A stretch of DNA of 15,995 nt from the IMG/VR virus record IMGVR_UViG_2531839661_000011; one strand, given 5' to 3'. Below are positions 3,001 through 6,000 of the stretch, one piece after another. Positions within the stretch are counted from its first letter, which is position 1. The number at the start of each line of letters is the position of its first letter. This DNA comes from a virus (taxonomy: Duplodnaviria > Heunggongvirae > Uroviricota > Caudoviricetes). The position numbers were made by a program.

Positions 3001-6000
3001 CAGGCTATCACGAAAGCCGTGACGGACTCAAAGCACTGGGCGCAGAACGTCACCATTACATTAATCTGGCACGCGCAGAGAACCGTGTTACAGGTCTGGT
3101 GGCTGGAGAACGCAGCACAGCCAGCGAGCAACAGTTAGGCTTACTGATAGTCATGCAGAAAATCGAGCAGGCAGCATTTGACGAGGCGATACAGAGCGGC
3201 ATGACACCGACCGAAGCGGTGCGGGAGGTTGCCTGCCGCATGGAGACGTTCGCCAGCCTGATGACGTCAGCGCCGTCTCTGGGGGTGAATCATGCGTAAT
3301 TATGTTATCCCTCCCAATCATGAAGGCGGTTATATTTATGTGGCGCTTTCTGACATTGGATTAGTTAAGGTTGGAAAAACCAGAAATGTTTCAGCCAGAA
3401 TGAAACAGCTATCCACTGGTAGCGGCATAGTAATCACTAAAGTCGAGGTGTTAGGGCCATTTGTTAATTACGGACAAGTCGAATTAGCTATTCATGCAAA
3501 ACTTACATCAGAACGCCGTTCTGGTGAGTGGTTTTCTGCTGATTTTGATACGGTTAAAGCAATTGCTATCGATACATCAGGAATAGGTACTCCTGGTGCG
3601 GAATTAGTTAACAACGATGCTTATCGCTACGAACGCGTGTTTTTATGGTTTAGTGCGCATGAGGAACAAATTAAATACGAACAAGCACTTTGCGAAATAT
3701 TATCTGATACGGCAATTAACTTTCTTAAGGAGTATGGCACAGCTTGCGCCCCATATGTTGCTTTATGTATTCACACAATGGGGGGTGTAACTCTTCAACA
3801 GGGACAAAAGGCCTACTCTGTATATCCTTGTGGATTTAAAGAGTCCACATTGGATCAGTTAAGGGAGGATTGGAATAATTTTGCAGATAAAGATATTTTC
3901 GAAGACTCTGATTTTGATGATTTTCTTATAGACATAAGTGATAAAGATAAATTTAAGTCAGAAGCTGAGGAATGGAGAACTGATGCAATAAATAATCTTT
4001 TCACAGAACTCACCGATGATTACCAGCGCTGGCTGGCCCGTCGCATGGGAGAGCATGAACATGCCTGACATCCTCAAACCTGCTGTCCGGTACATCGACA
4101 CGGCGGATAAGTTCGCACTACTGAACATCAACCATGCTGATTACATGCGCCATATCGTGAGCCATTTCGCCGCTGAGCGCATGAAACACGTTAAGCATTA
4201 TCAGAAGGAGGCTTTATCAAATTATCGCACTGGTGGCCCTGTACGGCGCGAATATCCGCATGATGCAGGAATGGCAGGCAAAACAAAGGCGACCACGAAA
4301 GGGTCGCCAGTGGAGATAAAGGAAATCAAGCGCATCACCAACTATGCCATGAGTGTAGCTGGTGGACAATGCTATCAGCCAGGCGGTCGGTTTTTAGTGG
4401 CTTTTAACCGCCGTGGGTATTTCTCGACAAAATCTTCAAGGGCAAATTTTTTAGCTTTTGTATGTGATGCCTTTGACTCGTCATCACATGTTTTTCCGCG
4501 CCTTATCCTGTTTTCAATAAAACGGGAGGCGGCCTTTTTATTCAGCGATGAATCAATGGGGCTGCTCCCTGTTTGCTGCTCGACAATGGCATCCATGAGT
4601 AGTTGGTGTTGTAGTTGTCGTAAAAATTTCTCATCTTCTGGTGGTAAATCCATACTTATTTCCTGTACAGCGGAGCGACGCAGCACCTCACACCACGGCG
4701 CTGATGGTTGTTATTCGTTTTATGGAGTCAAAGAAGCAAAAGCGGATCGCTATCGGTTTTTAGGCGAGATTAATCGCCGTGGGTATTTGTCCAGAAATGC
4801 CTCAAGCGCAAATCGTTTTGGTCTGGTGAGAGGAGAGGGATTAAGCAAAGACTCACGTTCCAGGCGTACTTTTTCGCGCTGGCGCTCAAGTATGGATAAT
4901 GCGATTTCCTGTAATTCTTCATTTGTCATTGTCTGTACCCGTAAAGCGGTGCGCTGTAGTACCTCATATCACAGCGCAGGTATTTTTTATGGTTGTAATT
5001 TGCGTGATGATTCAGGTCGCTTTGCGACATACTGCATAAACATAAATAACGTGATGTTATTATGTGCTTTCAAAGAAAACGCAGGTATTTTTCGCACAAA
5101 CTTCTCTCGCAACACATCCGACCACTTAAGCAAAAAAGCGGCATATACTGAGGCTATCCCTTATAAAACGGGGATCGGGCGTAGGAACCCGTTTAACTGT
5201 GAGGCGACAAATGACGCCAGAAGCGTCTTTTTTTCTGCCAGCGATTTACGCCATATCAATGGTGTTGTGCATTGTGCGTACCCGTGCACCATCCAGTCAT
5301 TTCACGAGTTGCATTTTGCACAGCGCCACCAGCAAACAATGGTGATGCTGGCGGGGCTACCGAAAGGTAGGCCGGAGTCCTTACAGTCCGGTATTCCTAC
5401 CCCCGCCAGTGTCACCGCCCTGTGTGAGCGTAGGAACTCCAGCGGTGACGTTATTTATCACTGTAAGGAGGCTGCCACTATGGCTACTACCCCTACCCTG
5501 GTACATTCTCAAACCGCCTTCATCTGGCGCTTTATCACTGTTGGCACGTCAGAACGTCAAATCATCCACGTAACCGCCTGGACGGAACTCGAAGCGCGTA
5601 ACCGTTGCCCGTCAGGTTGCGTTGCTGTATTCGCCGCCCGTATCCGTCAGGAGGCATCACATGGATAAAAACATGTTGATCGCCTCTTCTTTCGGGCTGT
5701 ATGATGCCGGAGTCGCCCACATGGCGACCGGGTTTAGCAGCCTGAATAAATTGGCGGACAGCCGCCCATATCCGATAAGCGGTTTTTTTGTGTCCGTAAA
5801 CCTACCCATACCCGCATTATGGCGGGGCGTAACGGGGGAGCCTTTGCGCTCGCTGGTTTCCCAATTTGCCAGTCTGCTAACCCTGTTACGTCTCGCCACC
5901 ACGTTTAGCAGCGTAGTAGCGAGACTCCTTAACATTAAATTGGGAGCCTTTCACATGGCTGTATCCGCACGCCCTTACTTTGTCTGGCGCTTTATGCAGT

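Follow-up and report, generated by a model that had tools for sequence, protein, structure and literature searches.

How are the phage-inducible chromosomal islands (PICIs) of Gram-negative bacteria kept silent? The question is open: these satellites have been described as transcribed only rightward, with no known repressor (Fillol-Salom 2018; PMC6092414). About one E. coli genome in three contains a PICI-type satellite, and these elements influence both phage defence and gene transfer. We analysed a stretch of 15,995 nucleotides (IMG/VR record IMGVR_UViG_2531839661_000011, Caudoviricetes; hereafter the window) whose minus strand encodes two small genes, A and B, between alpA and the replication genes, each with a hairpin ahead of it. 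By sequence comparison, A and B with their leaders belong to a previously undescribed cassette that combines a small protein with a leader RNA and is carried by E. coli satellites, and the strand opposite the cassette carries a conserved frame without stop codons, which we call the connector frame. This constraint on both strands suggests a translation-coupled, two-strand regulatory switch, previously undescribed, located in the regulatory gap between alpA and the replication genes.

Two tandem small genes on the minus strand

The open reading frames (ORFs) of A (4375-4653; ATG at 4653, stop at 4375; 92 amino acids) and B (4750-4929; 59 amino acids) lie on the minus strand where an earlier reading of this DNA, made without database searches (the sequence-only reading), had placed them. 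That reading spoke of a convergent pair, which is incorrect: A and B are tandem and co-oriented, and convergent only with the alpA operon. The common C-terminus and 3' nucleotide block that it pointed out are real. The C-termini align 16/25 (E 4e-10), and the tail-coding blocks, 4387-4461 in A and 4753-4827 in B (minus strand, repeat family D1), are 75% identical and have the exact runs TCGGTTTTTAG and CGCCGTGGGTATTT in common. A and B are therefore paralogous genes.

The product of A has a helical N-terminal part followed by the conserved tail KKFALEDFVEKYPRRLKATKNRPPG, and that of B a long helix (residues 3-29), a short helix (41-48, FALEAFLDK) and a basic tail. In the AlphaFold2 model of B (pLDDT 78.5) both helices are present and the basic tail is disordered; the model of A is all-helical, at lower confidence (pLDDT 68). 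The tail of the family, KYPRRLKATKNRPPG, has the consensus K[RK]FALE[AD]F[VL][DE]KYPRRLK..KNRPPG, of which B lacks the terminal PPG. It follows a variable N-terminal helix of at least 10 types and is kept, with conservative replacements, across at least 19 clusters of minus-frame proteins. The sequence-only reading had not recognised the family, and our searches agree: A and B matched no family in Pfam, NCBIfam, PHROG or PADLOC, no PDB entry was found by PDB profile search or by Foldseek with the model of B, and tblastn detected no homologue in 50,697 phage records. A scan of GTDB species gave homologues in only one E. coli and one Shigella flexneri genome, and a hidden Markov model search of 1.84 billion representatives returned 19 proteins, of which all those with checked source names are from E. 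coli. In one genome, gene A is annotated by the PGAP pipeline as hypothetical protein WP_000365496.1. On the strength of these searches, A and B represent a new small-protein family found only in E. coli and Shigella.

Both ORFs are conserved in related islands with a coding signature, a point on which the sequence-only reading had made its case depend. For B-type genes, the ratio of nonsynonymous to synonymous differences (pN/pS) is 0.21-0.46 in the minus frame in three pairwise comparisons, about 1-2.4 in the non-mirrored frames and 0.42-0.79 in the mirrored + frame. In related islands, the small gene usually follows a putative ribbon-helix-helix (RHH) gene, in which minus-frame differences rank 3 > 1 > 2 by codon position, the pattern of a minus-strand gene; the small genes differ to about the same extent at codon positions 1 and 2. 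All 43 of 43 distinct variants of the downstream small gene are intact and start at an equal distance from the hairpin. By these measures A and B are real genes under purifying selection, the constraint being weaker than in the upstream RHH-type gene. Beyond A lies a predicted intrinsic terminator (4308-4288), found on the minus strand only, with a 7-bp stem of which six pairs are G-C and a T tract (GGCGACCCTTTCGTGGTCGCC then TTTGTTTT); the surrounding region is conserved in other islands. B and A, in that order, are thus predicted to be one minus-strand unit ending at 4308-4288.

A leader of constant geometry

Each small gene is preceded by a 63-nt leader on the minus strand. The leader of A (4651-4713) consists of TAA, 9 nt, a stem-loop, 21 nt that include the Shine-Dalgarno (SD)-like ACAGGA, and the ATG; that of B (4927-4989) has no gene before it. 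A vestigial TAA stands 12 nt ahead of each stem, and these leaders may still contain short pieces of the end of an upstream gene. The hairpins reported about 20 nt upstream of the genes both exist, their stems ending 21 nt ahead of the ATG. Hairpin A lies at 4675-4701, and its 7-bp stem (GCGCCGUGGUG UGAGG UGCUGCGUCGC in mRNA sense) carries one C.U mismatch and several G.U pairs. Hairpin B (4951-4977; GCGCUGU GAUAUGAGGUACU ACAGCGC) has a perfect 7-bp stem, in which pair 5 is U-A versus C-G in most copies, a compensatory change; its folding z score is -2.1. The two hairpin regions (4662-4714 and 4938-4990) are 72% identical, and a pattern describing the hairpin pair matches only these two sites in the window, with 0 expected. 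In the gene-sense RNA, G.U pairs extend the stem to about 11 bp, closing the purine-rich 5-nt loop UGAGG that had been read on the mRNA strand.

Comparison of related copies shows which properties of the leader are kept. The distance from stop to ATG is 63 nt in 56 of 56 distinct variants, with no indels. Among 24 distinct hairpin sequences, 88% of the stem pair cells hold standard pairs, against 21-56% in slid controls; four stem pairs change on both sides, and many positions hold G.U or alternate between G-C/A-U and G.U. Pairing reaches 88.6% on the sense strand versus 75.8% on the complement, with mean folding energies of -13.3 and -10.3 kcal/mol, respectively; for hairpin A alone the values are -8.8 in sense and -2.3 kcal/mol on the + strand. 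Since G.U pairs turn into A.C mismatches on the complement, and both pairing and energy worsen there, the structure belongs to the minus-sense RNA and the hairpin is predicted to work on the gene-sense strand.

The invariant part is a G+C-rich stem that begins 9 nt past the stop codon and reaches as far as -22, immediately beyond the ribosome footprint. Such constant geometry suggests that the small gene is controlled after transcription, by way of stability, processing, attenuation or factor recognition. The most common copy (locus L013) passes a simple minus-strand terminator scan (12 pairs, tail ATTGCTTTAC), in which a terminator is a G+C-rich stem with a short loop and a U tract starting at most 2 nt from the stem; the window copies, with tails UCCGCUGU and ACCGCUUU, are not called. 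Leaders with no gene ahead of them (window B and the iha-associated TAI island of E. coli O157:H7) nevertheless retain the hairpin and show compensatory changes in it, so that it would be more than a terminator of the preceding gene. A search with all 4227 Rfam models at E <= 1 found nothing at 4675-4701 or 4951-4977 on either strand; its matches lie only at 5143-5903.

Several specific roles were considered and set aside. A CsrA site, with GGA in the loop and at the SD, was dropped because GGA occurs in only a minority of variants, and the loop as a universal SD mimic is weakened by the loops UGAGU, AGAGU and CGGUG. Fusion of the upstream and downstream genes by stop-codon read-through was discarded on account of in-frame stops in the leaders of window B, locus L012 and TAI. 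As targets of the C4 or isrK RNAs described below, the loops offer a sole complementarity of 7 nt, which is at chance level, and they stay the same though C4 specificities differ between islands. Activators of the Ogr/Delta type recognise TGT-N12-ACA in the late promoters of P2 and P4; hairpin B reads TGT-N13-ACA and hairpin A does not fit, and this idea was dropped as well. The 13-nt direct repeat CGCAGGTATTTTT noticed in the sequence-only reading is exact (4975-4987 and 5080-5092, + strand). Its proposed part as a control element or operator did not stand: the TAI island copy of O157:H7, at 75% identity, does not conserve the second repeat, and with two mismatches allowed at least two matches arise in 17 of 200 shuffles, making it a doubtful functional element.

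A stop-free frame opposite the cassette

On the + strand, a connector ORF (4016-5668) runs antisense to A, B and both hairpins, passes through the isrK and C4 RNA genes and ends as an Icd-like domain; PGAP calls it as a 550-aa 'Icd-like protein'. The stop-free frame itself spans 3992-5668 and overlaps the end of the GIY-YIG gene. Its likely start, ATG 4055 or ATG 4061, the latter preceded by GGGAGAG, overlaps the GIY-YIG stop codon (4066-4068), and the frame links the alpA-Rha-GIY-YIG operon to icd via overlapping start and stop codons. Between 4069 and 5480 the three + frames contain 34, 0 and 18 stops.

The open frame is not particular to the window. The antisense frame that shares wobble positions with the small genes has no stop in 42 of the 43 variants of these genes and in 48 of 52 distinct cassettes, the exceptions being over-extended calls of the upstream ORF or one truncated gene. 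Shuffling codons within genes leads one to expect 2-4 stops per cassette, with a probability of an open frame of 0.01-0.17, and ordinary genes of the window show 0.6-7 stops per 100 codons in the equivalent antisense frame. In nearly all intact elements the open stretch measures 600-2300 nt and covers the whole cassette, the intergenic leaders and the minus-strand terminators. It begins just past alpA or the next accessory gene, usually with an SD and an ATG. Its end coincides with the icd stop in some loci; in the rest it mostly falls between -12 and +28 nt relative to where icd starts, a few lying further off (-51 to +128 nt). In EcCICFT073, the model E. coli PICI, it forms a 428-aa frame from alpA to Icd, and it is broken only in decayed TAI remnants. 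The leader length of 63 nt is a multiple of three, so upstream gene, leader and downstream gene share one antisense frame.

The connector frame is therefore not a chance ORF. Because its product is fully replaced wherever cassettes are swapped, and looks non-proteinaceous, the selected property seems to be the absence of stops, that is, translatability. A stop-free antisense frame of 0.6-2.3 kb is hard to explain except by selection for translation through the region; rightward transcription through the cassette appears to be selected for, and translation probably is too. The annotation of the region is inconsistent: identical DNA is given by PGAP as a 550-aa or 258-aa 'Icd-like protein', as an 'Ash family protein' or as a small minus-strand gene, and in O157:H7 PGAP calls a + strand ORF antisense to the B-like gene. 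This alternation between a long 'Icd-like' coding sequence and the small genes amounts to a systematic annotation problem.

Spread and architecture of the cassette

Of 5426 complete E. coli genomes, 1570 contain the 63-nt element, which occupies 2064 places in all and reaches 6 copies in a single genome; EcCICFT073 carries the same cassette. In its usual form, a small gene of the YlcI/YnfO family (a membership taken from PGAP naming) or of an Arc-like type is followed by the small gene exactly 57 nt downstream, in the order upstream stop codon, 9 nt, stem-loop, 21 nt including CAGG, and ATG of the small gene. The upstream gene is divergent from the icd/replication operon; its product ends in ...RRKAKESE in the YlcI/YnfO type and in ...GIEPKG in the Arc-like type. 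By its sequence pattern the former is a predicted RHH regulator, and the latter, whose Pfam Arc match is sub-threshold, is a putative one. All ORF variants are intact (at least 36 upstream and at least 43 downstream), and the near-identical leader joins upstream and downstream gene types in free combination. Repeats and palindromes in the promoter regions of the RHH-type genes are candidate operators. Locus L013 carries operator-like repeats GGTGTTGAACAC, GGTGTTAAACAC and AGTGTTGAACAC ahead of the YlcI/YnfO-type gene (3490-3600) and GGTAATTACC twice ahead of the Arc-like gene (2790-2830).

The window departs from this plan in having two orphan copies of the cassette and no RHH-type gene. A sister island at the same yicC site (L004) has one small gene (4076-4264), a chimera of B (5') and A (3') with its junction in the tail block, and one immunity module. 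Two differences thus separate it from the window, a duplication or unequal crossover within the tail block and the window's additional isrK/C4/icd unit; the tail-coding blocks, on this comparison, act as a substrate for recombination. The TAI island of O157:H7 contains a decayed B-like/A-like tandem at 75% identity; about 1.7 kb from it (L003, 3241-3314) lies the gene of the enterohaemorrhagic E. coli small RNA Esr41 (Rfam RF02676, 108.6 bits).

Island setting and immunity modules

At 100% identity, the window matches an island in the chromosome of E. coli O43 RM10042 located between yicC and dinD. Its + strand encodes an integrase (1-1263), one hypothetical gene, alpA (2237-2512), a Rha-family gene (2580-3299), the GIY-YIG gene (3292-4068) and, preceded by small ORFs, a D5-type primase (6929-8752), followed by genes for SSB, a ProQ/FinO protein and PerC-like proteins. 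With int, a co-oriented alpA, a primase module and the specific yicC/dinD site, and by the size criterion of about 10-16 kb, the whole island is, judged by gene order, an E. coli PICI-type satellite. The P4-type iteron TGTTCACC occurs in inverted sets directly 3' of the primase gene (8836-8922), probably the replication origin of the island; spurious Rfam microRNA matches arose from these iterons. The three PerC-like ORFs (10387-10689, 11611-11913 and about 11920-12082) have the motif GLWRRAA.RW in common, and the first is named PerC family transcriptional regulator by PGAP.

Between the cassette and the primase operon lie two tandem immunity modules of the P4/P1 type (5143-5668 and 5699-6125), each with a C4/CI-type RNA, a complementary target hairpin upstream of it and an icd-like ORF downstream. 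In module 1, an isrK/P4 seqA-like RNA (5156-5233, + strand, divergent from B; 49.6 bits, E 3e-08) precedes a C4/P4 CI-type antisense RNA (5335-5422, + strand; 69.0 bits, E 6e-12) and the Icd-like coding region (5480-5668, + strand), which is the C-terminal end of the connector ORF and which tblastn with Icd-like queries detects at 5480-5665. Module 2 comprises an a1b1/isrK-like RNA (5699-5789; 37.6 bits), a C4 RNA (5815-5903; 73.3 bits) and an Icd-like ORF (5622-6125, + strand) matching NCBIfam NF033153 and likewise located by tblastn, a frame marked by PGAP as a frameshifted pseudogene. Both C4 scores exceed the gathering score of 45, and both isrK scores stay under theirs of 50 (Rfam families RF01695 for C4, RF01394 for isrK and RF03163 for c4-a1b1). 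As read from the alignments, the pairing specificities differ: the C4 junction UUCCUAC pairs with the isrK loop GUAGGAA in module 1, and C4 CUGCUAA with a1b1 UUAGCAG in module 2. Each C4 gene is contained in a stop-free + frame that closes with an Icd-like domain (4016-5668 and 5661-6125). At 5199-5345 a small hydrophobic ORF (MTPEASFFLPAIYAISMVLCIV...) was also noticed; its AUG (5211) falls within the isrK/seqA-like RNA and is preceded by UGAGG, an arrangement that resembles orf45 of Salmonella IsrK. The idea that RHH-type and C4-based control exclude each other was rejected, 20 loci carrying both.

A proposed translation-coupled switch

What could a leftward cassette inside a rightward, translatable frame be for? 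The sequence-only reading had proposed a convergent-transcription or antisense switch between the alpA operon and the immunity region; the conserved stop-free frame lends support to that idea, and the switch itself stays an inference. In our preferred reading, the cassette lying in the connector frame is an antisense switch in which rightward alpA-operon transcripts are kept translated and hence Rho-resistant, to which we assign a probability of about 0.45. In the quiescent island, the B-A unit would be expressed from the minus strand, and the leader hairpin would set the level of the small proteins post-transcriptionally, as a 5' or intercistronic stabiliser or attenuator near the ribosome-binding site. 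A helper phage would then turn on the alpA operon, and rightward transcripts would cross the cassette; translated without interruption along the connector frame, about 1.4 kb of it antisense to the cassette, they would escape Rho-dependent polarity, and ribosomes would be carried through the C4/seqA region, past the C4 block, into icd and the primase operon. The opposing transcription would silence B-A by transcriptional interference or antisense pairing. The expression states, the involvement of Rho and the biochemical role of the proteins are all putative parts of this scheme.

The scheme draws on what is described for modules of the neighbouring kind. In P1, C4 is said, after work by Biere, Citron and Schuster in 1992, to block icd translation and so to cause Rho-dependent polarity on ant. 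In P4, CI RNA pairs with seqA and seqC and provokes premature termination (PMC4825925). A translation-dependent escape from Rho would thus be the native logic of the neighbouring module. A further-reaching version, possible although we lean against it, makes the hidden leftward operon (RHH-type repressor, FALE/KYPRRL protein and hairpin) the missing master control: through a connector ORF that serves for translation only, Rho-immune AlpA transcripts would override the C4/CI block and silence the leftward operon, giving a bistable two-strand switch. The upstream RHH-type gene with its small partner is a candidate for the missing PICI regulator.

Several observations weigh against the antisense switch. 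For B-A, a sigma-70 promoter scan found no promoter. On the + strand, the in-frame ATG 4016 lacks an SD and only ATG 4061 has a plausible one; the connector product does not look like a protein, being rich in Cys, Ser and Arg; and the product of the open-frame probabilities, about 1e-22 over 15 cassette clusters below 80% identity, comes from clusters that share recombining segments and are not fully independent. The window also lacks the usual upstream YlcI/YnfO-type gene, so its biology may differ from that of the canonical cassette. As to the hairpin, the near-identity of most copies keeps the covariation modest, and the pair and type counts observed are reached in 17-19 of 500 shuffles. 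Most copies have the loop UGAGG, and the remainder show UAAGG, UGAGU, AGAGU or CGGUG; the window copies have a degraded U tract, which the CGGUG variant lacks altogether. With such loop variants and missing U tracts, no single simple role, such as SD mimic or terminator, suits every copy.

Alternative explanations

Two alternatives seem to us improbable without being negligible. In one, the hairpin is an RNA operator for a protein, possibly for the arginine-rich small proteins themselves, as boxB, in the nutL leader ahead of the N gene, is for lambda N, and serves autoregulation or antitermination. The loop and upper stem are indeed conserved beyond the needs of a bare structural hairpin, the small proteins have Arg/Gln-rich helices (ERQREK, IIRQRQSE, SPARKRRRRK) and a basic tail, many copies show a loosely boxA-like UGCUUUACA past the stem, and the most common copy, being terminator-like, would provide a target for antitermination. 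However, loop variants do not co-vary with the downstream protein, a single loop being found ahead of at least 7 protein types; several variants have lost the boxA-like stretch; Pfam, NCBIfam, PHROG and PDB searches revealed no similarity to N or to RNA-binding families; and the resemblance to nut is a loose one.

The other, to which we give no more credit, assembles the locus from ordinary parts: the hairpin as a leaky terminator or mRNA stabiliser, the leader and tail blocks as recombination linkers, and the open + frame as an unselected by-product or the leftover of an ancestral + strand gene. An open frame far beyond the codon-shuffle expectation in at least 15 divergent cassette clusters is not what this predicts, nor is one that spans intergenic segments and terminators, ends precisely at icd and decays in the defective TAI; and the hairpin is retained with compensatory changes where there is neither an upstream gene nor a U tract (window B, TAI). 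The terminator call for the most common hairpin, the B/A chimera of L004 with its junction in the tail block, and the free recombination of gene types around a near-identical leader are what speaks in its favour.

A toxin-antitoxin-like pair, with an upstream RHH antitoxin and A and B as genes for small toxins, is very unlikely, even though the architecture in relatives (a small putative RHH gene, then a small gene 57 nt on, with candidate operators formed by repeats and palindromes at the upstream promoter) is like that of type II modules. The window and L004 carry the small genes without an RHH-type gene, a state that would be lethal with a true toxin, and an obligatory antitoxin is thus missing; this is why a toxin role for A and B is unlikely. 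Neither a toxin or defence family (Pfam, NCBIfam, PHROG, PADLOC) nor a PDB sequence or fold was matched, and the proteins are modelled as hydrophilic helices with disordered tails.

No more credible is that the + strand ORF is the sole real gene, coding for a long Icd-like protein, and that A and B are spurious antisense ORFs. PGAP calls the 550-aa + coding sequence in most genomes, the frame is conserved as open, and its pN/pS is also below 1, wobble positions being shared with the minus frame; but the minus-frame pN/pS is lower in all three comparisons, minus-frame codon position 2 is the most conserved in the upstream small gene, the minus-frame motif persists with conservative replacements in its 19 or more clusters, the + product is fully altered at cassette swaps and looks non-proteinaceous, and an ATG and an SD-like CAGG stand at a fixed distance from the hairpin. 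The suggestion of the sequence-only reading that the hairpins could also terminate + transcription running antisense into A and B is the least likely of all, for although hairpin B is followed by AGGTATTTTTT on the + strand, the terminator scan calls neither hairpin there, hairpin A folds at a mere -2.3 kcal/mol with its G.U pairs turned into A.C mismatches, the + flank is TGATAGTGATTA, with no T tract, in most copies, and termination would clash with the conserved read-through frame.

The antisense switch would give the cassette a place in satellite control, and the finding as a whole comprises a new small-protein family and a new cis-RNA element on the strand opposite to the rightward transcription published for Gram-negative PICIs. 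EcCICFT073 has been genetically manipulated and mobilised by helper phages (PMC6092414), and as it carries the cassette, the predictions are directly testable.

Comparison with known systems

The nearest known systems are the immI region of P1/P7 (c4-icd-ant) and the immunity region of P4 (seqA-CI-seqC): the cassette adjoins a module of this kind, which is present twice. There, an antisense RNA controls the downstream genes by premature termination and translation of a leader ORF matters, which is the logic we invoke for the connector frame. We know of no opposite-strand small-gene cassette in P1 or P4, nor of a long ORF running through their C4 or CI RNA gene; here, each C4 copy is enclosed in a stop-free frame with an Icd-like domain at its end.

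Opposing transcription serves as a switch in P22 immI (mnt, arc-ant and the sar antisense RNA) and at the face-to-face pR and pL promoters of coliphages 186 and P2. The likeness would extend to the small RHH-type regulators that, in relatives of the cassette, head a short operon predicted to face opposing transcription. The cassette differs in that the overlap, 0.6-2.3 kb, is kept translatable and in that the second gene encodes 57-92 aa and no antirepressor, and the window has no RHH-type gene at all. Likewise, the short pentaloop stem in the leader of a gene for a small arginine-rich protein recalls lambda nutL boxB and N, but the cassette hairpin precedes the boxA-like stretch, in reversed order, its loop is not GNRA-like and its proteins show no similarity to N.

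In E. coli K-12, ynfO-ydfO of Qin and ylcI of DLP12 (YlcI/YnfO, DUF3950) belong to the same family as the usual upstream gene, and ynfO is followed by the next gene after 57 nt. Unlike the cassette, the Qin spacer has no equivalent hairpin and the downstream ydfO is DUF1398 rather than a FALE/KYPRRL gene; the window, for its part, has no YlcI/YnfO gene. That spacer (L090, 3757-4048) does hold CCTCATATCACA, identical at 12 of 12 positions to the + loop of hairpin B and in opposite orientation relative to the YlcI/YnfO-family gene. With stabiliser hairpins and leaky terminators the cassette shares a G+C-rich stem just outside the ribosome footprint and, in its most common copy, a partial U tract; unlike in these, loop sequence and exact spacing are conserved far beyond need, and neither the window copies nor the CGGUG variant have the U tract. 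Taken with its neighbours, the proposed switch belongs to a known kind, that of phage and satellite immunity and antisense control.

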